From a bacterium (lineage in GTDB: Bacteria > UBA8248), in contig OY843592.1 in assembly GCA_963692865.2 (NCBI GenBank), positions 2,048,001-2,112,000 on the forward strand: a stretch of DNA of 64,000 bases, read 5' to 3'. This document shows, piece by piece, positions 3,793 to 43,021 of this stretch. The stretch's first letter is position 1. Each line of letters starts with the position of its first letter. Made by a program: the position numbers and the translations under genes. The notes under the pieces were generated by a model that made no database searches, had not been told where the DNA came from, and saw nothing but the letters and a program-made list of their open reading frames with translations.

Positions 3793-4761
3793 TTGCACGA
3801 TAAAACATCAGGAAATGAAGAATCGGGACTGAGAGCAGTTGAAATCGAAGGGGTGTCCCTGCATCTGAGCGGGCGCACCGATTCCGACCAAGCGTGGATC
3901 GGTCAGACGGAGGTGCTGCGCCAGCTTCTGGCCTGCTGGATGATCGTAGCGGAGGAGGACTTTTCTCTTTCTCCGAGAATTATCGGCCCCCCCGGCATCG
4001 GGAAGACGACGCTGGCGATGGCGGCGGCGCGGGAGAGAAAGCAGGAATTGTTCATATTTCAGTGCACCTCCGATACCCGCCCGGAAGACCTCTTGATCAC
4101 GCCCGTCCTGGCGGAATCGGGGAAAATCGCCTATCACGCATCCCCTCTTGTTACGGCCATGATGCGAGGAGGCGTCTGTGTGCTGGACGAGGGAAACCGG
4201 ATGAGCGAGAAAAGTTGGGCCTCACTGGCTCCGTTGCTCGATCATCGCCGCTATGTGGAGTCCATCGTTGCCGGCGTCACGATAAAGGCGCACCCGGATT
4301 TCCGCTGTTGCGTAACGATGAATGAAGATGCCTCGACATACGAGGTGCCCGATTACATCCTCTCGAGGCTCCAGCCCACACTGGGGCTTGAGTTCCCGAA
4401 CAAAAAAGATGAAATGGCCATCCTGAAGTACCACTTGCCGTTCGCTCCGGGCGAGATGTTGGCCTTGACGGTGGAGTTCTTGCAGGAGGCCCATGAACTG
4501 GACCTGGAGTATTCTCCCCGGGACGGGATCCACATTCTGCAATTCGCGCTCAAACGCCTTGCGCAGGACCCGGAGCATCCGCTCTCTCAGGACGAAGCGT
4601 GGCGGGAGGCGCTCGCCAAGGTTTTGGGAGATGACGCGTTGGACCTGAAAAGACTTGCGCAAAAAAGACGGCAAGCACTCGGCGACGAACTTCCGCCGCT
4701 TGATTTCGGCGATATTTTCTTTGGAGGCGACAGCCCCTTGCGCCCGGATCGAGACGATTGA
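3793..4761 (+). CDS. MoxR-type AAA+ ATPase
   Basis: Walker A GPPGIGKT, Walker B VLDEGNR, HPDFR..TMN. Confidence 0.88.
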
Positions 4762-4764
4762 TTC

Positions 4765-6738
4765 ATGGGTGAAAAAGATTTCCTGAACATCACCGATCGG
4801 ATCAGCGTACTGCCCGTCATCCATGGGTCGGGAGACTTCGCCGTCGAAGTGCGCGACAGGATTCTGAAACTCGATCCCGACTGCGTTGCGATTCCGTTGC
4901 CGCCGTCTTTTCAGGATGAGGTGGAAACGGGCGTAGACGGGCTCCCATACGTTTCCATGGTGTCGGTGAATGAAGACGCCACGTCATATCTCAGTGATGA
5001 TAAGGCGCTTTTTGACGAGGGGTGGGAGCAGGAGCAACCGCCCGGAGATAGTCTGGACGCTGAAGATGAGTTGCCGACGGATGAAGCAAATCTGTCTTCT
5101 TACAACTATGTGCCGATTGACCCTTGCCAACCCGTGATTTCCGCTCTCCGAGCGGCGATGGGGGAGCGTATCCCCAGAATCTTTGTTGATATGGAAGTGG
5201 AGCGTTTTCAGCCGGATATCCAAACGCTGCCGGATCCGTATGCGCTGAAAAATGTGCCGATGGAAGCTTTCGCCGCATCGCTTTTGACGGCGGCTCCCAA
5301 GCCCTCTGCATCTTCGCAGCGCGCCGCGAGAATTCGCTGGATGGCCGACGCTCTTCTCGAACTCGAAACACGGTACCAGCGCATCGTCTTTGTATGTTCT
5401 GCGATGGATTGGCCCTGGATTCGCTCGGACTGCCTGGAAGGGCCATCGAGAGACGAGAAATTGTTCGAGTTCCACTCGGGCGCGTCTCTCAACCCGCCCC
5501 GAAGGTTTGGGGTATCGGAAGATACCCTGGCTTTCCTGCTGGGGGAGTTTCCCTATCTGACGTATCTGTACGAGAAAAAACGCGAAGAACTCTTGGGTGA
5601 CTCTAACCTTTCGATTGACGGCGTCAAGGAACTCCTCCTGGAGGCAAGAACGTCGTGGTTGAGCGAACATCGGCCCGCGCAAAACTGGGTGACGCCTCAA
5701 CGACTCCAGGTATTCCTGCAATACGTCCGGAATCTGACGCTCCAGGGCAAGAGGCTGACGCCGGATTTATTCACTCTCGCCCTCGCCGCCAAGCAGACAG
5801 CGGGCGATGCCTTCGCCTTGTCTCTATTGGAAGTCGCGCGAAAATACCCCTATCAGCGCGAAGCCCCCGAATTGGGGGAAGATGATTCTGTCCATGTAGG
5901 CGTGGATCGTGCGGTATTCCCTGACGGGGATGTCGGGACGCTCAAGAGCCGCCTGGGCGGTTCTGCCGTCGTCTGGAGGAGGATTTCCCTCAAGCCGAAG
6001 CCCACGCCGTTTGAAAAACGCGAATGGGCCCAGAGATGGAATCCCTTCGGCATGTGTTCCTGGCCGCCGGAAGATGACGCCATAGAGAGCTTTCATACCC
6101 ATGTGCGTGAGCAGGCCAGGGCGCTATTGGGGGAAGACCTGGCTCGCACCGAAAAATTCACGACGTCGATAAAAGACGGACTCGATATCAGGGAAACGCT
6201 CCGCAACTGGCATACGGGCGACCTCTATGTAAAGGAAATTCCCCCCGCGCGGGGAAATCTGGAGGTCGTCGTCTTTTTATTCGATACGCCCGCCGACGCC
6301 GAGAAGTATTCCTGGCGTACGATGTGGTACGCCGAACATGACGAAGAATCGACGCTCTGCATCTATGCGACTCCGTTCGAGAACAATTTGGTGGGACCGG
6401 GCATCGCGGAATCGCAATACGGCGGGGCGTTCTTTGTCTTTCCTCCCCGTCATATCGAGGACGTCTGGCGGGATCCGCGCTTTCGCTACACGCAGACACT
6501 GGAGGAGCGATTGATCGCAGGGGCGTGTTTTCATTCGAGAGAGCGGTTCATCGCTCTGGTGAGTCCAAAGCCGCCCGATTCTCGCTGGCGTCGGATTGCG
6601 CGGCAACACAATAAACATTTGATTCACATTCCCATTGGCCGGTTTTCTGGAGAGACCATCGCCCGAATCCGTCGGTTTCATGTTCTGAGCGGAAAAAACA
6701 TCAGGAGCTACGCCGCTCGATTCATACGGGAAATGTAA
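4765..6738 (+). CDS. large hypothetical protein, probable MoxR partner (TraB/YehM-like N-terminus)
   Basis: 657 aa, starts 3 nt after the ATPase stop; PVIHGS..PDCVAIPLP and LDIRETLRNW motifs. Confidence 0.75.
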   Translation: MGEKDFLNITDRISVLPVIHGSGDFAVEVRDRILKLDPDCVAIPLPPSFQDEVETGVDGLPYVSMVSVNEDATSYLSDDKALFDEGWEQEQPPGDSLDAEDELPTDEANLSSYNYVPIDPCQPVISALRAAMGERIPRIFVDMEVERFQPDIQTLPDPYALKNVPMEAFAASLLTAAPKPSASSQRAARIRWMADALLELETRYQRIVFVCSAMDWPWIRSDCLEGPSRDEKLFEFHSGASLNPPRRFGVSEDTLAFLLGEFPYLTYLYEKKREELLGDSNLSIDGVKELLLEARTSWLSEHRPAQNWVTPQRLQVFLQYVRNLTLQGKRLTPDLFTLALAAKQTAGDAFALSLLEVARKYPYQREAPELGEDDSVHVGVDRAVFPDGDVGTLKSRLGGSAVVWRRISLKPKPTPFEKREWAQRWNPFGMCSWPPEDDAIESFHTHVREQARALLGEDLARTEKFTTSIKDGLDIRETLRNWHTGDLYVKEIPPARGNLEVVVFLFDTPADAEKYSWRTMWYAEHDEESTLCIYATPFENNLVGPGIAESQYGGAFFVFPPRHIEDVWRDPRFRYTQTLEERLIAGACFHSRERFIALVSPKPPDSRWRRIARQHNKHLIHIPIGRFSGETIARIRRFHVLSGKNIRSYAARFIREM

Positions 6739-36986: not shown

Positions 36987-38093
36987 ATGTCCACCGAATA
37001 CATATGGGCGCTTTGCTCCCACAGAGCGGGGGACGGGTCGCAGGTGAACCAGAAGACGCCCGAGCGCCCCGCCACCCTGGATTATTTGGCGGAAGTCACG
37101 GCGACGGCCGAGGAGGCGGGCTTCGCCAACATCCTCGTGCCGTGCGGCACGCACTGCATCGACGCCTGGACGACGGCGGGCGCGATTTCGAGCCGGACGA
37201 AGAAAATCAAGTTTCTCGTGGCTTTCAGACCCGGAATCACCGGTCCGGTCTATGCGGCGCAGCAGGCGAACAGCCTCGATTATCTCACGCGCGGGCGGTG
37301 CACCCTGAACGTGGTGACGGGCAGCACGCCCGTGGATCAGAAAAGATACGGGGATTTCATGCCGCACGACGATCGCTACGCGCGAACGGGCGAGTTCCTG
37401 GACGTGGTGCGCAAGCTCTGGAACGCGGAGGGCCCCCTGGACTACAAGGGGAAATTCTTTGAAATCGAAAACGCAAGCATCTTTCCCGAGCGGGTGACGA
37501 AGCCGAATCCCCCGATTTTCCTGGCGGGCAGCTCCGAGCCGGGCAAGCGCGTGGCGTGGGAGCACGGCGACGTGCACGTCATGTACGCGGCCGAGCCCGA
37601 GGTTGTCGGGAAGGACATCGAGGAGGGCAGGCGCGAGTCCCAGGCGTACGAGCGGGAGCGGCCGCTCAGCTACGGCATCCGCCATCTCGTCTGCGTGCGC
37701 GAGACGAGGGAAGAGGCTGTGCGCGCCGCCGAGGCGCTCATCGACAAGAGCGACATCTCGAACACGGGCACCTGGAGCGACATGAAGAACAACACCGAAT
37801 CCACCGGCCAGATGCGCATCAACGAGATGGGCTCGCGCGGGAGCCTCTGGCTCACCGACACGATCTGGATGGGCGTGAACCGGGTGCGCGGCGGCGCGGG
37901 GACGATGTTCGTCGGCACGCCGGACATGGTCGCCGACGTGATTCGCGAGTATTACGACGCGGGCGTGCGGCACTTCATCATGAACGGATGGCCCCACAAG
38001 GAAGAGGCGGAAATTTTCGGCAGGGAGGTTCTGCCGCTTCTCAAGGATACCGAACCCGTCGTACTGCCCGAGCCCGCCGGCGTCGCAGCGTAA
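36987..38093 (+). CDS. LLM-class flavin-dependent monooxygenase (SsuD-like)
   Basis: AEEAGF..ILVP, FLVAFRPG, LNVVTG, HDDRYAR, FLAGSS. Confidence 0.9.
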   Translation: MSTEYIWALCSHRAGDGSQVNQKTPERPATLDYLAEVTATAEEAGFANILVPCGTHCIDAWTTAGAISSRTKKIKFLVAFRPGITGPVYAAQQANSLDYLTRGRCTLNVVTGSTPVDQKRYGDFMPHDDRYARTGEFLDVVRKLWNAEGPLDYKGKFFEIENASIFPERVTKPNPPIFLAGSSEPGKRVAWEHGDVHVMYAAEPEVVGKDIEEGRRESQAYERERPLSYGIRHLVCVRETREEAVRAAEALIDKSDISNTGTWSDMKNNTESTGQMRINEMGSRGSLWLTDTIWMGVNRVRGGAGTMFVGTPDMVADVIREYYDAGVRHFIMNGWPHKEEAEIFGREVLPLLKDTEPVVLPEPAGVAA

Positions 38094-38108
38094 ACGCAAA
38101 AACACGAA

Positions 38109-38642
38109 ATGACCCCCTACATTCTCGTCTTCGGCGGCAGCCGCAGGCCGCAAAACAACACCGACAAGGCCCTCGCATTAGCGCTCGATGAGTTGGGCGA
38201 GGGCGATTTCGAGATCAGGCGCGTTCATCTGGGCGAACTGGATCTCCCTCTGCCGGGTGAGCCGAGCGAGTCGAAAGACCCCGATAAGCTCAAGGAACTC
38301 GTGACGGGGGCGGCGGGCATCCTCATTGCGACGCCCGAGTATCACGGCAGCATCAGCAGCACGCTCAAGCTGGCGATTGACAACCTGGGCTATCCCTCCA
38401 CCTTCGAGGGCAAGACCATCGCCATCTTCGGCGTGGCGATGGGGCCGAGCGCGGACAACGCACTCGCGCACCTGAGACACATTCTCACCCACATCGGCGG
38501 AGAGGTTCTGCCCGGACAGGCTTCGGTCGGGAGCGTCCACAAGGTCTTCGGCGAGGATGGTCGCTGCGTGGATGAGGAGGCGGAGGCAGAGATTCGGGGC
38601 GTCGCCGCTCGTTTGATTGGTCATCTCAAGAATTCATCCTGA
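38109..38642 (+). CDS. NADPH-dependent FMN reductase
   Basis: GS.R, TPEYHGS, LKLAID. Confidence 0.9.
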   Translation: MTPYILVFGGSRRPQNNTDKALALALDELGEGDFEIRRVHLGELDLPLPGEPSESKDPDKLKELVTGAAGILIATPEYHGSISSTLKLAIDNLGYPSTFEGKTIAIFGVAMGPSADNALAHLRHILTHIGGEVLPGQASVGSVHKVFGEDGRCVDEEAEAEIRGVAARLIGHLKNSS

Positions 38643-38650
38643 AACGAATA

Positions 38651-39430
38651 ATGACGGACTCCCCCACCAGTTTTCTGCACCGGCCGGGAAAATCTTCGCT
38701 CGCCTGGTTCCGGCTGGAGGGCGAATCGCCCGGCCTGATGTTCCTGGGCGGTTTCCGCTCGGACATGAGCGGGACGAAGGCGAGCGCGCTGGAAGCCCAT
38801 TGCCGAAAAGTCGGGCGCGCCTACGTCCGCTTCGATTACGGCGGACACGGGGAATCTTCCGGGAAATTCGAGGAGGGCACCATCGGCGAGTGGGCGGAGG
38901 ACGCTCTCGCGATACTGGACGGCGTCGCACAGGGTTCTCAGGTGCTCGTGGGATCCAGCATGGGCGCGTGGATGATGCTGCTCGCCGCCCTGGCCCGGCC
39001 CGAACGCGTGAAGGGTCTTGTGGGCGTGGCGTCGGGCCCCGACTTCACGGCGGGCTTCAAAAAACACAGGCTCACCGAAGAATTAAAGGGAGAACTCGAC
39101 GAGCGGGGATATATCATGCACCCGCCGAATATCTGGGAGGAGCCGTACCCCATCACCAAAAAGCTGCTCGATGAGGGGGACAACCATCTGCTCCTGCGCG
39201 GTGAAATCGATGTAACTTGTCCCGTGCGTCTCATCCACGGAATGTGCGATGAGACCATTTCCTGGGAGGTTTCCTTGAAACTGGCGAAGCTCCTGAAAGG
39301 CGACGATGTGCGACTCACGCTCGTCAAGGACGGCGGCCACCGGCTCTCGCGGGATGCGGACATCGAACTCATCATCCGGACGGCAGAGGAGTTGGCTGCG
39401 GGGCAGGGGGAGGCAACGGTCGATTTGTGA
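38651..39430 (+). CDS. alpha/beta hydrolase (ABHD10-like)
   Basis: GFRSDM.GTKA, RFDYGGHG, GSSMG, GGHRLSR. Confidence 0.9.
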   Translation: MTDSPTSFLHRPGKSSLAWFRLEGESPGLMFLGGFRSDMSGTKASALEAHCRKVGRAYVRFDYGGHGESSGKFEEGTIGEWAEDALAILDGVAQGSQVLVGSSMGAWMMLLAALARPERVKGLVGVASGPDFTAGFKKHRLTEELKGELDERGYIMHPPNIWEEPYPITKKLLDEGDNHLLLRGEIDVTCPVRLIHGMCDETISWEVSLKLAKLLKGDDVRLTLVKDGGHRLSRDADIELIIRTAEELAAGQGEATVDL

Positions 39431-39530
39431 AGCACTTGATGGGATGGAAAGCGCATCGCCTTGTTGTAAACAAATATGAAATTTGTTATCATTTTGTAGT
39501 GTCTAGGTGTGGTGTCCATGAGGAGGTTGA

Positions 39531-40043
39531 ATGATCGGAGCCGATGCCTCCCCGTTAATCGTCTTTGCCAAGATTGGTCGCCTGAGGTTTTTGAAAGAAC
39601 TCTACGATGAGGTGTTGATAGGGCCTGTAGTGAAGGAGGAGACAATCGACGCCGGCAAGGTTGTTCGCGCCTTGGGCGTAGAGCAACTCGAATCCGCTAT
39701 GGAAGACGGCTGGCTGCAGGTGGTTCGCTTGACTGGTGAAGAACAAGACCTGATGCGACGACTCAGTGACCGCTCTCGGCTCGATAACGGGGAGTCCGAG
39801 TCTATCGCGCTTGCGAGTGCACGGGGCTTGCAACTGATCGTTGACGATAAAGAGGCCCGAAGCATGGCCGCCGCCGCGGGAATAGAACACATCGGCGCTG
39901 TCGGTGCATTGTTGGAAGCATACTTTCGAGGACATCTCGACTTGGAGGAACTGGAAGTCACGGTTCAGGACATTACCCGGATTCTGTGGCTTTCCCCATC
40001 CGTTGTGGCGGAAGTATTGCGAATCGCGCGGGAGGCGAAGTGA
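39531..40043 (+). CDS. PIN-domain protein (DUF3368 family), putative toxin
   Basis: DASPLI, V.EE, LDNGESESIALA, IVDDKEAR, G.VG.L. Confidence 0.85.
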   Translation: MIGADASPLIVFAKIGRLRFLKELYDEVLIGPVVKEETIDAGKVVRALGVEQLESAMEDGWLQVVRLTGEEQDLMRRLSDRSRLDNGESESIALASARGLQLIVDDKEARSMAAAAGIEHIGAVGALLEAYFRGHLDLEELEVTVQDITRILWLSPSVVAEVLRIAREAK

Positions 40044-40360
40044 TGAAAAAAGAGCGTATGGTGGGCGCGAGGCTTCCCCTGGAACTGGTCCGCGAACTGG
40101 AACTCATCGAGAACGTGGAGCAGTCCGACCGTTCGACCACCCTGCGAAAGCTGCTGTCGAACGCCGTCCGGCAGTGGAAGCTGGAGCACTACGCCCGGCT
40201 GTACGGGGACGGGAAGGTGACCCTCGCGCGGGCGGCCCGCGATGCGGGAGTTTCCCTGTGGGAGATGATGGACTATGCGCGCATACGAAAAACGCCGGTC
40301 CAATACGACCTCGAAGATCTCGAGCGGGACCTGCAAACCATCCATCAAGGGGATGCGTAG
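40043..40360 (+). CDS. UPF0175-family putative antitoxin with RHH-like N-terminus
   Basis: VGARLP..DRST.LRKLL; LY..GKVTLARAA..AGVSLWEM; YD.EDLERDL; TGATG overlap with the PIN gene. Confidence 0.85.
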   Translation: MKKERMVGARLPLELVRELELIENVEQSDRSTTLRKLLSNAVRQWKLEHYARLYGDGKVTLARAARDAGVSLWEMMDYARIRKTPVQYDLEDLERDLQTIHQGDA

Positions 40361-40463
40361 CTCAAATTCGGTTTGAACAGGTGTTGCCCTCTCGACCCGC
40401 ATGAATGGGTTCCCCCCTGTCGATGTTCGCCCCGACGCGTCTGCGCGATTGATGATGCGCGGC

Positions 40464-40493
40464 TTGACACCAAGTCTTTGTTATCGTTAGTCT
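40464..40493 (+). promoter_or_regulatory. possible sigma70 promoter of the eL13-domain gene
   Basis: TTGACA-N18-TAGTCT. Confidence 0.4.
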
Positions 40494-40545
40494 TAACCCG
40501 TAAGTTTTCTTATTTCTCTTACCGCCCCCTTACAATCCTTTGAAG

Positions 40546-41322
40546 ATGGTTTTCTGCCGGGACGAATTATCGACCTCAAAGGGGGGCGCGAAAATCAAAA
40601 AGAAACTTTTCAACCGCATCGCGCGTCACAAGGGTTCCACACCTGCCGAACCGGATGAGGGGCATGAAATTCCGCCTCCCTCGGCCATCGAACCGGGAGT
40701 GCCGTATTCGGCTGAAGATCCGGAGGGCGAAAGCTATGGCTCTCATATGGAGTTGGAGCTGCTGGCTGCCGATGAGCCTTCGCGCACGGATTCGACGAAC
40801 GGTGTGGATGCCGAAGAAAGCGGCCGCCATGTCGCAGCAGAGGCATCGGCGGCCTTGGTCCCGGACGATTCACCGGATGATTCCGAACCGTCTCGTGAGG
40901 TCGAGGCGCACCGGGAGTATGGTCTTGAAATGGAAGTTTTGGCTTCGCCGGGAGTAGACGAGTCGCCTGCTGCGCCGGAGCCGTCTCAAGAAGATGATGA
41001 AACCGTCCCGGATGCAGCCGAAAGCGTCCCGGAGGTTCCTGCGTCCGAACCGGAGAGCCTCGATGCGAGTGGTGGGGAAACTGCGGACGACCCCGCGGAT
41101 GCTCCACCGGAAACGTCCGCAGCGGACAATGGACTCTCCGCCCTCGTCAGGGATGCGCGCGGCGACTGGCGGCCCGGAAAGGGCTTCAGCCGGAGCGAAT
41201 TGCGGGAAGCCGGCCTGAGCCTCGCCGAGGCCGCGCGTCTGCGTATCCGCGTCGACAAGCGCCGCCGCAATTCGCACCCGATGAACGTCGCGGCCCTTGA
41301 AAAAGCGAAAAATAAAGCCTGA
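40546..41322 (+). CDS. protein with acidic disordered N-terminus and C-terminal ribosomal protein eL13 (L13e)-like domain
   Basis: C-terminal RPGKGFSRSELREAGLSLAEAARLRIRVDKRRRNSHPMNVAAL fits the eL13 signature R.G(R/K)GFS..EL..AG......A..(L/I).I.VD.RR; start codon uncertain. Confidence 0.8.
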   Translation: MVFCRDELSTSKGGAKIKKKLFNRIARHKGSTPAEPDEGHEIPPPSAIEPGVPYSAEDPEGESYGSHMELELLAADEPSRTDSTNGVDAEESGRHVAAEASAALVPDDSPDDSEPSREVEAHREYGLEMEVLASPGVDESPAAPEPSQEDDETVPDAAESVPEVPASEPESLDASGGETADDPADAPPETSAADNGLSALVRDARGDWRPGKGFSRSELREAGLSLAEAARLRIRVDKRRRNSHPMNVAALEKAKNKA

Positions 41323-41339
41323 GGCGAGGCGACGTGCCC

Positions 41340-41824
41340 CTATGCTATTTCTCTCAAATCAAGTTGGTTAATAACTTGGAGCCGATGATTGCCAGACACG
41401 TCCTCGTTTATTTTCCGCAGGACACTGAGTGATATTTGTCTCTGTCCGTTAGATTGTAATTTGCCTGTCTTCTGCCAAGGTTTCATGCCAGGACCGTTAT
41501 AGACAATTTCAAGTTCGTGTTCGGGAGTCAGTCTAAGCACAATGAGGTGCTCAGGTTCGCTCGACATTGCAACGCCTTTATTTCCTTGCGTGAATTTGAT
41601 CTGAACGAACGTCCCTTGTTTTGTCTTGGCACGTGCGTTTGGGTGGAATTCTCTAATAGCTTCAAATCAAATACGTATGCGGCGATGACTTCACCAATAC
41701 TGCCGACCAGATGACCATCCAACGTAAACTTACGGTTTGGAAATAAAGTTTCCAGTTCGGCAACCGTCTTATAAAGGTTTTTTAATAACCTGCCTAAATC
41801 ATTCCATTTCTATTCTTTTCTCAC
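41340..41824 (-). pseudogene. DUF6998-like putative PD-(D/E)xK nuclease, disrupted
   Basis: FTLDGHLVGSIGEV, H[D]AK...VQIK, EIVYNGPG; in-frame TAG at 41810-41812 and a 1-nt deletion at about 41631; AT-rich. Confidence 0.75.
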
Positions 41825-41882
41825 GCTAGAAAGCCTTGGTATGAGAAAGGACTGAGGGGCGGACGATGTATCGAGAAAACCT

Positions 41883-41957
41883 TGGCTCCGGCGGTAGGAT
41901 TCGAACCTACAACCCATCGGTTAACAGCCGATTGCTCTGCCGTTGAGCTACGCCGGA
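41883..41957 (-). tRNA. tRNA-Asn(GTT)
   Basis: TCCGGCGTAGCTCAACGGCAGAGCAATCGGCT-GTT-AACCGATGGGTTGTAGGTTCGAATCCTACCGCCGGAGCCA; cloverleaf, encoded CCA. Confidence 0.98.
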
Positions 41958-42022
41958 GTGAGAGGCGTTGCGCTTGAGTCTGGATTCTACCGGATTCGGC
42001 GCCAACTCCCAAGCGTAAGGGG

Positions 42023-42052
42023 GTTATAGGGAAGCGGGCTTAAGGTTGTCAA
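42023..42052 (-). promoter_or_regulatory. promoter for tRNA-Asn
   Basis: TTGACA-N18-TATAAC on the minus strand. Confidence 0.55.
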
Positions 42053-42073
42053 GGCTACCGGGTGAGCCGAAAA

Positions 42074-43021
42074 TCATACCGGCGCGGATAGTCTCTGCTT
42101 CTCTCTGCGAACCAGCGAATCTTCTTCGGCCAGCGCTCGGCGGATCGCTTCGCTCAGGCCGCAGGGGCGGATATCGAACATCCCCATGCCGCTCGGGTCG
42201 CCGACGGTCGTCTCGTTGCGGAGACTCTCGACGAGTTTGCGCCCGACCCTGGCGTAGAGCGGCGTAACCAGCGCGAGCCACAGGCTGGAGAGGCGCGGAG
42301 TGAGTACGGGCACGGCGATCATCATTCGCCTAAGCCCCCGCTGGCGGGCGTATTCCGCCATGATGTCCCCGTAGGAGGCGCGGTCGGCGCCGCCGATTTC
42401 CAGGACGAGGCTGCGGCCTGTGGGAGCGTCGAGAGCGGCGACGAGGTATTCGATCACGTCTTCTATGGAGATCGGCTGAGCGAGCGTGCGCACCCAGCGG
42501 GGCGTTACCATGACGGGCAGCCTCTCCACCAGCGCCCGGATCATCTCGAACGAGAGGCTTCCCGAGCCGATGATGATTGAGGCTCTGAGCTCTATCGTCT
42601 GCGCGCCGGAGTCCCGGAGAATGCGGCCTACCTCCTGCCTGCTCGCGAGGTGGTCGGACAACCCATCCTCGCTTCCCAGTCCGCCCAGATAGACGATGCG
42701 CTTAACACCCGCCGCCCGGGCCGTGGATGCGAACCCTTTTGCGGCTTGGCGGTCTTCTCGGGCGAAGTCTCCGCCCGACGCCATCGAGTGGACGAGGTAA
42801 TAGGCCGTGGATATACCGCGCATGGCCGCGGGTAGCGTCTCGGGTTTAAGGAGGTCGCCATGCACTACCTCTGTACTGGGCGCGACCTGTGGTTCGAGGG
42901 CTTCGGGGCGGCGGGCCAGGCACCGAAGCGCGCGTGATTCGGCTTCGAGGCGGCGCCTGAGCCTGCCGCCGATGTATCCGGTCGCTCCGGTCAACAGGAT
43001 CTTTTTGCGGTTTTCGGCCAA
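42074..43021 (-). CDS. atypical SDR / NAD(P)H-binding protein (YbjT-like, no C-terminal extension)
   Basis: TGATGYIG, YYLVHSM, HLASRQEVG, GSGSLSFEM; TTG start. Confidence 0.85.
   Translation of the reverse strand: MAENRKKILLTGATGYIGGRLRRRLEAESRALRCLARRPEALEPQVAPSTEVVHGDLLKPETLPAAMRGISTAYYLVHSMASGGDFAREDRQAAKGFASTARAAGVKRIVYLGGLGSEDGLSDHLASRQEVGRILRDSGAQTIELRASIIIGSGSLSFEMIRALVERLPVMVTPRWVRTLAQPISIEDVIEYLVAALDAPTGRSLVLEIGGADRASYGDIMAEYARQRGLRRMMIAVPVLTPRLSSLWLALVTPLYARVGRKLVESLRNETTVGDPSGMGMFDIRPCGLSEAIRRALAEEDSLVRREKQRLSAPV

Follow-up and report, generated by a model that had tools for sequence, protein, structure and literature searches.

The window analysed in this work is a stretch of 64,000 nucleotides (nt) of bacterial DNA (GTDB lineage Bacteria; UBA8248; GenBank assembly GCA_963692865.2, contig OY843592.1, positions 2,048,001 to 2,112,000 of the forward strand). 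One of its genes encodes a 258-amino-acid (aa) protein, P0001, whose C-terminus is a true eL13-type domain. P0001 represents an acidic family of three-part proteins of one Nitrospinota genus, in which a short basic N-terminus and a long acidic region precede the basic eL13-like tail. The best-supported placement of the domain is within a bacterial lineage of eL13-like modules whose main home is the C-terminus of a family of longer proteins, referred to here as the long family, which are encoded next to DruE-like helicases. The probability that P0001 is a stand-alone, island-borne offshoot of this family of DruE partners, binding nucleic acid via the eL13 fold, was estimated to be about 0.5.

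The eL13 identity of the C-terminus had been proposed in an earlier note made from the sequence alone, and the eL13-like sequence quoted there corresponds to residues 208-253 of P0001. The proposal was borne out by profile and structure searches. Pfam PF01294 (Ribosomal_L13e) matched P0001 with 32.6 bits, above the gathering cut-off of 24.9 (E 9.2e-8), residues 209-244 (41170-41277) being aligned to profile positions 63-98 of 180. With NF008914, the NCBIfam model for archaeal L13e, the score was 56.2 bits (E 1.9e-15), which is under the equivalog cut-off of 96; the scores of ten small L13e-like proteins, 55.9-84 bits, were likewise under this cut-off. In a phmmer search of the PDB, all 60 listed sequences were eL13/L13. 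The best E-value, 1.1e-5, was obtained with a 157-aa chain; among eukaryotic chains the E-value was 3.2e-5 for the microsporidian one and 0.001-0.35 for the others.

An AlphaFold2 model of the last 74 aa, calculated from a 68-row alignment, had a predicted local distance difference test score (pLDDT) of 84.4, and all 50 Foldseek matches listed from the PDB were eL13 chains of ribosomes and 60S/pre-60S particles. The template modelling (TM) scores of these matches were 0.57-0.71 (query-normalised) with root-mean-square deviations of 2.1-3.3 Å; this predicted fold match leans on the sequence match, because the alignment held L13e-like proteins and AlphaFold2 was trained on eL13 structures. In the alignment of 68 bacterial and small L13e-like sequences the core pattern R-x-G-x-G-F-S...E...D-x-R-R...N was invariant or nearly so: G29, S31, E34, D53, R56 and N63 were invariant, and R25, G27, F30, G39, R55 and L67 were conserved in at least 90% of the sequences.

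In comparison with eL13 and archaeal L13e, the P0001 domain has the same fold and the core R-x-G-[KR]-G-F-S...E-L...G...D-[KR]-R-R...N, and its score on the archaeal model falls within the range of the ten free-standing small proteins. In contrast, only the ~60-aa core is kept, at the end of an acidic protein, and it occurs in a bacterial host, in an island context, with paralogues and a patchy presence in the genus. The stand-alone architecture and lineage-wide presence typical of ribosomal proteins were not found for P0001. The automatic database name 'ribosomal protein L13e', under which these proteins are entered for Nitrospinota or Rhodospirillaceae bacteria, is misleading.

Residues 1-32 of P0001 have a net charge of +7 by composition count. 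The following 164 residues (33-196) include 47 D/E and 4 K/R, together with 23 P, 24 A and 19 S, and they are presumably disordered (Table 1). The composition and the motif positions agree with the earlier note, which had described an E/D/P/A/S-rich stretch with a twice-occurring motif behind a basic N-terminus. Both motif copies of P0001 fit the pattern Y-G-x-x-[LM]-E-x-L. Within the acidic family, 1-4 copies of a lineage-specific motif, Y-G-x-x-[LMF]-E-x-L, are present; the pattern was found in 99 of 105 acidic-family proteins, and in none of the 63 long-family and 58 small L13e-like proteins. The relatives of P0001 are listed at 146-449 aa, the length of the acidic region shifting via gain and loss of repeat units. 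At the DNA level a single 12-nt unit in 1.9 copies was the only tandem repeat in the gene, and the protein repeats have diverged. In the N-terminal alignment (A5), K3, R8 and K13 were invariant in 12 of 12 sequences. A complex prediction of the C-terminal domain with the N-terminal 100 aa, which include the first motif, scored 0.00 and is evidence neither way. In the representative library, the 160-aa protein P0166 shares the mini-architecture of the acidic family: its N-terminal helix is basic and rich in cysteine, a short stretch of acidic residues and serines comes next, and the tail is eL13-like. Apart from this tail, P0166 has no sequence relation to the acidic family.

The relation to the long family emerged when 1.84 billion representative proteins were searched with the last 74 aa of P0001, with 345 hits at E≤0.001. 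Among the best 150 of these, about a quarter to a third belonged to the acidic family itself, 63 were proteins or fragments (up to 1,086 aa) with a common core of ~440 aa, and approximately 58 were small proteins of 55-135 aa, of which the ten scanned all matched the archaeal L13e model. In each of the 63 core-bearing proteins the eL13-like domain was located no more than 22 residues from the C-terminus. The best hit outside the acidic family was the long-family protein P0111 (71.7 bits, aligned over all 74 residues); no small archaeal-type L13e protein scored above 51.3 bits. Direct capture of the module by this gene, as the earlier note had it, is improbable in view of these scores. P0001 itself matched the long-family profile at positions 644-714 of 714 (E 6.8e-23) and its relatives from positions 602-649, while PF01294 was detected at E≤0.01 in 48 of 51 long-family members.

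The long-family proteins are ~580-1090 aa in length, those with complete genes in the eight loci described below being ~660-815 aa. They consist of an N-terminal amphipathic helix, a disordered stretch, a core of ~440 aa predicted to be made up of immunoglobulin (Ig)-like beta-sandwiches, a flexible linker and usually the eL13-like tail. The model of the 660-aa member from the sister-species genome G007 (pLDDT 82.4) comprised a helix at 34-56, a low-confidence stretch, a beta-rich core at 157-589, a low-confidence linker at 599-612 and the tail. No Pfam family was found over the core in the 51 members scanned, and the Foldseek matches of the core were multi-Ig proteins. P0001 was not among the 64 proteins matching the core profile and has no Ig core. 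The known range of the long family covers two genomes of the genus, six metagenome contigs and 63 representative clusters. A long-family protein had no match among 72,556 plasmids, and the family had none in one other phylum sampled blind (19 genomes); the protein atlas scores for the family, 0.82 at most, were not usable. The protein P0245 of the second of these genomes, G009 (L044 8742-11132), carries the core plus an extra Ig-like segment, its tail being acidic, helical and not eL13-like.

In all eight loci studied (G007, G009 and six metagenome contigs found with the long-family profile, L050-L055), the sequence directly downstream of the long gene is DruE-like. Three of the metagenome contigs hold full-length helicase genes of 1,399-1,405 aa. 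The other three hold 513 aa cut by the contig end, 146 aa plus a second short N-terminal match near the contig end, and a 136-aa remnant. In G007 (L032 6959-13202) the helicase gene, which encodes 1,425 aa, begins within the long-family gene, and G009 (L044 8742-15498) carries the pair as well. The PADLOC DruE models matched with E-values of 3e-154 (G007 helicase) and 2e-156. The complete helicases are 1,387-1,425 aa long and contain the Pfam domains DEAD, Helicase_C and MZB; no PLD nuclease domain was found in them. Druantia type III is presented in two sources (10.64898/2026.05.13.724758, PMC12458937) as DruE plus DruH, with a III-B subtype whose compact DruE is devoid of PLD domains. The two-gene module of long-family protein and DruE-like helicase looks like Druantia III-B, for the partner of which there is no PADLOC model.

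Like DruH, the long-family protein is a large protein of Ig-like beta-sandwiches plus a C-terminal domain, and its gene immediately precedes that of a DruE-type helicase. P0001 differs from DruH in that it lacks the Ig core and that no DruE was found in its genome, and neither the long nor the short protein is matched by a PADLOC model. The surroundings of the modules on two of the metagenome contigs are defence-island-like: on L054 (7723-9747) a gene for a fused restriction-modification methylase (HSDR_N + N6_Mtase) comes after the module, and on L055 (4036-5670) a PIN-kinase fusion gene comes after the module with the remnant helicase.

The G007 operon spans the interval from the same transfer RNA (tRNA)-Asn gene to the same alpha/beta-hydrolase gene that flank the P0001 gene, which indicates that this flank is a variable cargo site. 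According to the reading given above, the offshoot resides in a variable island bordering the 3' end of tRNA-Asn and would have been copied to other mobile contexts. The basic eL13 fold would bind nucleic acid, since eL13 binds ribosomal RNA (rRNA) in ribosomes and, as described in one source (10.64898/2026.05.12.722862), canonical DruH binds single-stranded DNA partly through its C-terminal domain. The acidic spacer may mask the basic surface or present the repeated motifs to a partner, as suggested by the charge layout and the motif conservation.

Regulation of basic nucleic-acid-binding domains through an acidic disordered tail is known from HMGB1, and the phage protein Ocr is an example of an acidic DNA mimic. 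P0001 is similar in charge layout, its small basic domain (+9) being joined to a long acidic stretch (-43), although it has no sequence or fold relation to either of them.

A number of observations weigh against derivation from the long family, in addition to the dependence of the fold match described above. Homology with the long family was demonstrable for the last 70-110 residues only. When the N-terminal 100 aa (alignment A5) were compared with the long family (A3) by hhalign, the probability was 0.2%, and the N-termini of the two families are alike only qualitatively, both being basic and amphipathic for a short distance and acidic thereafter. With homology confined to the tail, an independent fusion would explain P0001 equally well as a core-less derivative. 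A tree of the domain, constructed by a quick method from 159 rows and 61 columns after three in four acidic-family rows had been thinned out as near-copies, recovered the acidic family as one group (support 52) and did not place it inside the long family (support 60). With so few columns, the tree does not fix where the acidic family stands relative to the long family and the small L13e-like proteins, and it shows neither donor nor direction.

The genomic context is also partly unfavourable. The P0001 gene and the G007 operon point in opposite directions with respect to the tRNA, and no remnant of an Ig core or helicase was found in the window. DruE-like matches at E≤1e-10 were absent from the own genome, and of the 17 sister genomes that carry the short form, 16 had none either, so any defence role would have to work without such a helicase. 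PADLOC-DB 2.0.0 returned no family for P0001, for the two long-family proteins of the genomes or for two from the representative library, a search which covers DruH models if that database holds any. No species of the genus was found to have both forms: the acidic one was present in 17 species, the long one in two (G007, G009) and neither in three. This complementary distribution may simply follow phylogeny. The genomes without the short form were the four smallest, of ~3 Mb (G001, G007, G009, G019), and G015.

An alternative, the main idea of the earlier note, is that P0001 is a ribosome-associated factor. Its eL13 fold would then sit on bacterial 23S rRNA in the position that eL13 has in archaeal and eukaryotic large subunits, and the acidic tail would project from the ribosome, attracting factors, keeping them off or silencing translation. 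The score on the archaeal L13e model within the range of the small L13e-like proteins is in accordance with this, as are the retention of the residues invariant in those proteins and the superposition of the model on ribosomal eL13. We regard it nevertheless as unlikely. The match is restricted to the eL13 core (36 of 180 Pfam positions), and the nearest relatives of the domain are tails of helicase-partner proteins. There is no ribosomal-protein gene context: the gene is situated in a variable island on the tRNA flank, where the guanine-plus-cytosine (GC) content dips to 0.557, beside a UPF0175 gene and a broken DUF6998 gene.

The distribution likewise speaks against a ribosomal function. In the whole-protein search 18 of 22 sister-species genomes matched, G007 via the tail of a different, longer protein only. 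The acidic form was found with an intact open reading frame (ORF) in 17 of the 22 and not found in the remaining five. In the positive genomes it is often present at 2-3 places. The extra copies either follow a tyrosine integrase gene at a distance of ~100 bp or have transposases of the IS110, IS1595 and Mutator families nearby, at a few kb. The genome G011 has two extra copies (L019 8440-9562 and L020 8586-9859), each split in two ORFs and both probably pseudogenes; the L020 copy is the integrase-adjacent one.

A broader variant would have both the DruE-partner tails and P0001 keep the ribosomal target and dock on rRNA or the 50S subunit at the eL13 site. We consider it quite doubtful. If it were true, a Druantia-like system and its spin-off would sense or act at the ribosome and not on DNA, and the acidic tail would be stalk-like or factor-excluding.

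P0001 could also be a general protein of the nucleoid, RNA or regulator type, acting as a housekeeping nucleic-acid chaperone or regulator of the genus, formed by an independent fusion of a small basic helix-rich domain with an acidic disordered region and unrelated to defence. The syntenic position of the gene is steady in most species, in the order of dihydroxy-acid dehydratase-like gene, luciferase-like monooxygenase, FMN reductase, alpha/beta hydrolase, P0001 gene, tRNA-Asn and NmrA-like gene, and the gene has its own conserved promoter-like box and leader. The earlier note had assigned it a candidate promoter of its own. A consensus promoter scan upstream of the gene found no sites, but the TTGACA/18 nt/TAGTCT box was present in 13 of 13 main-locus orthologues examined. 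It was missed by the scan because the second hexamer agrees with TATAAT at only 3 of 6 positions.

The leader of ~100 nt (40494-40593 and its orthologues) is better conserved than the acidic coding region; no Rfam family was found for it at E≤1. It holds the CCGCCCCC box (40522-40529; CCGCCCC), complementary to the G-rich ribosome-binding stretch at 40581-40588. In the RNAalifold prediction only that box paired with the G-run (5 pairs, -1.9 kcal/mol, 0 compensatory changes), which is a weak hint that the pairing could mask the translation start. None of the listed public runs holding the stretch was recorded as RNA.

A housekeeping role is further in agreement with gene-wide purifying selection, the absence of a helicase partner and the lack of detectable N-terminal homology with the long family. 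We judge it improbable all the same: the segment between tRNA and hydrolase varies between species and strains, paralogues are found in mobile contexts, and the nearest relatives of the domain are defence-associated. Of the 51 genomes covered by the phylum search, moreover, only those of one genus have the form, and the domain was found in 0 of the 28 genomes outside the genus. Only a weak match to the N-terminal part of the long-family profile was seen in one of these (G032).

A whole-protein search of 18 genomes outside the genus gave no match. In a word-index search P0001 retrieved 104 proteins at E≤0.001, including the query itself and the L13e of Thermofilum (P0104). A six-frame search with PF01294 resulted in one match in the own genome and none in 14 named control genomes; Sulfolobus acidocaldarius was among the matching controls for another family, so if the control set was the same, this search may miss small L13e genes. 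No relatives of the domain were found in viral contigs, and tblastn of the domain against 50,697 phage records gave no match.

The gene is under purifying selection. The pairwise ratio of nonsynonymous to synonymous substitution rates (dN/dS) was 0.23 over the last 66 codons (91 pairs), 0.32 over the first 40 aligned columns and 0.54 over the next 44 (66 pairs), with a synonymous divergence (dS) of 0.4-1.0 between orthologues. These values disfavour the explanation that P0001 is a non-functional remnant of a degraded DruH-like gene, kept only through close kinship of the species. This is very unlikely, as the ORF is intact in 17 species, the upstream box is kept in all orthologues compared and the motif in 99 of 105 proteins. 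It would account for the lack in P0001 of the core and partner that its relatives have, the split G011 paralogues, the broken neighbours and the shifted start codon. In the orthologues translation starts at the position of residue 15, where the window has GCG in place of ATG; as a result the ORF of the window starts at an upstream ATG and is ~14 aa longer. The shifted start was also seen in one relative (L014), and the upstream ACG/ATG position became ATG in this lineage.

Finally, a eukaryote-like protein of a sponge symbiont, delivered to the host, where the domain would target ribosomes or nucleoli and the motifs engage host proteins, is most improbable: the occurrence of a close relative locus (pieces 92-99% identical) in the sponge-metagenome run X5, the sponge or coral-reef metagenome labels of several other runs with small shares of the stretch and the confinement of the family to one genus are in its favour, but no signal-peptide-like hydrophobic N-terminal stretch was recognised by reading the sequence without a predictor, no secretion genes were found among the immediate neighbours scanned, and by PDB E-values the domain is nearer to archaeal-type and long-family versions than to eukaryotic eL13.

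In Table 4 of PMC3056875, eL13 has no bacterial Pfam members (2011), and PMC3353972 and PMC9932298 treat it as specific to archaea and eukaryotes. A fold assigned in the literature to eukaryotes and some archaea is found here in bacteria; it occurs in at least 63 clusters (50%-identity representatives) of a helicase-partner family, with the domain of life of most of them not assigned, as well as in a stand-alone family. No paper on a bacterial L13e-like domain or tying L13e to Druantia was found in the literature, and the main texts of the Druantia and YprA papers make no mention of such a domain, supplements being outside that search. The eL13 fold and Druantia-III-like partner proteins are known kinds, of which P0001 is an apparently undescribed form. 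If P0001 is an offshoot of the DruE partners, it would clearly exemplify the use of a ribosomal-protein fold within an anti-phage system and would provide a concrete handle on what is bound by the partner protein of compact Druantia-like systems, which is poorly understood.

Table 1. Features of the P0001 gene and its immediate surroundings (window positions).
Feature	Position	Strand	Remark
170-aa ORF preceding the UPF0175 gene	39531-40043	+	no Pfam family
UPF0175 (antitoxin-type) gene, upstream neighbour	39986..40360	+	Pfam
Promoter-like box: TTGACA 40464-40469, 18-nt spacer, TAGTCT 40488-40493	40464..40493	+	13/13 main-locus orthologues
Conserved 5' leader	40494..40545	+	alignment of 13 leaders; in orthologues extends to the ancestral start (= 40588)
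Coding sequence of P0001	40546..41322	+	258 aa plus stop, frame free of stops
Basic N-terminal segment, residues 15-32	40588..40641	+	codon 15 (GCG) aligned to the ATG start of orthologues
Acidic P/A/S-rich region, residues 33-196, presumably disordered	40642..41133	+	net charge -43
Motif copy 1, residues 63-74, S-Y-G-S-H-M-E-L-E-L-L-A	40732..40767	+	family motif pattern
Motif copy 2, residues 124-133, E-Y-G-L-E-M-E-V-L-A	40915..40944	+	family motif pattern
eL13-fold C-terminal domain, residues 197-258	41134..41319	+	beta-hairpin, two short helices, one longer helix; net +9
DUF6998 gene, broken into two overlapping frames (frameshift)	41340..41722	-	41340-41567 and 41528-41722
tRNA-Asn (GTT)	41883..41957	-	3' flank carries the variable segment with the P0001 gene

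The window corresponds to 2.05-2.11 Mb of one contig of a 4.15-Mb assembly in 8 contigs; in the single cluster record of P0001 the longest contig is given as 3.94 Mb. The bacterial origin of this chromosome was supported by the gene for bL12 on the same contig, by relatives from records with Nitrospinota titles and by the Pfam families of the neighbours, which are bacterial-type genes, as the earlier note had stated; eL34 was not found. The P0001 gene is not a chimeric join, and neither of the two outcomes that would have refuted the earlier note, a missing eL13 match or a mis-joined fragment, was observed. Both gene junctions are spanned by contigs of two public runs of the same study, which may include the source sample: a 4,088-nt contig of run X2 covers 38000-41938 without difference, and a 1,993-nt contig of run X1 covers 39930-41922. 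In run X5, from another study, a single contig runs from the 3' part of the relative's P0001 gene through to the tRNA.

The UPF0175 gene with its 170-aa partner is located between the hydrolase and P0001 genes in some genomes only; by family clustering, homologues of the pair are present in the loci of some relatives and absent from others. In the run X5 contig, 39413-39865, which includes the start of the 170-aa ORF, is exchanged for 3,495 other letters, which adds to the signs that this segment is variable between strains. The two halves of the DUF6998 gene match profile positions 73-135 and 21-59 of 136. The related strain of run X5 joins 41309 to 41882 and is thus without the DUF6998 gene (41310-41881). 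Direct repeats of the att type of at least 14 nt were not found in 39300-42100 around the tRNA flank. Elsewhere in the window, an AAA_5-type ATPase gene followed by a 657-aa ORF without a Pfam family (3793-6738, plus strand) is situated in the first 8 kb, where the GC content is 0.54-0.57; this gene pair could be another two-gene defence-type module.

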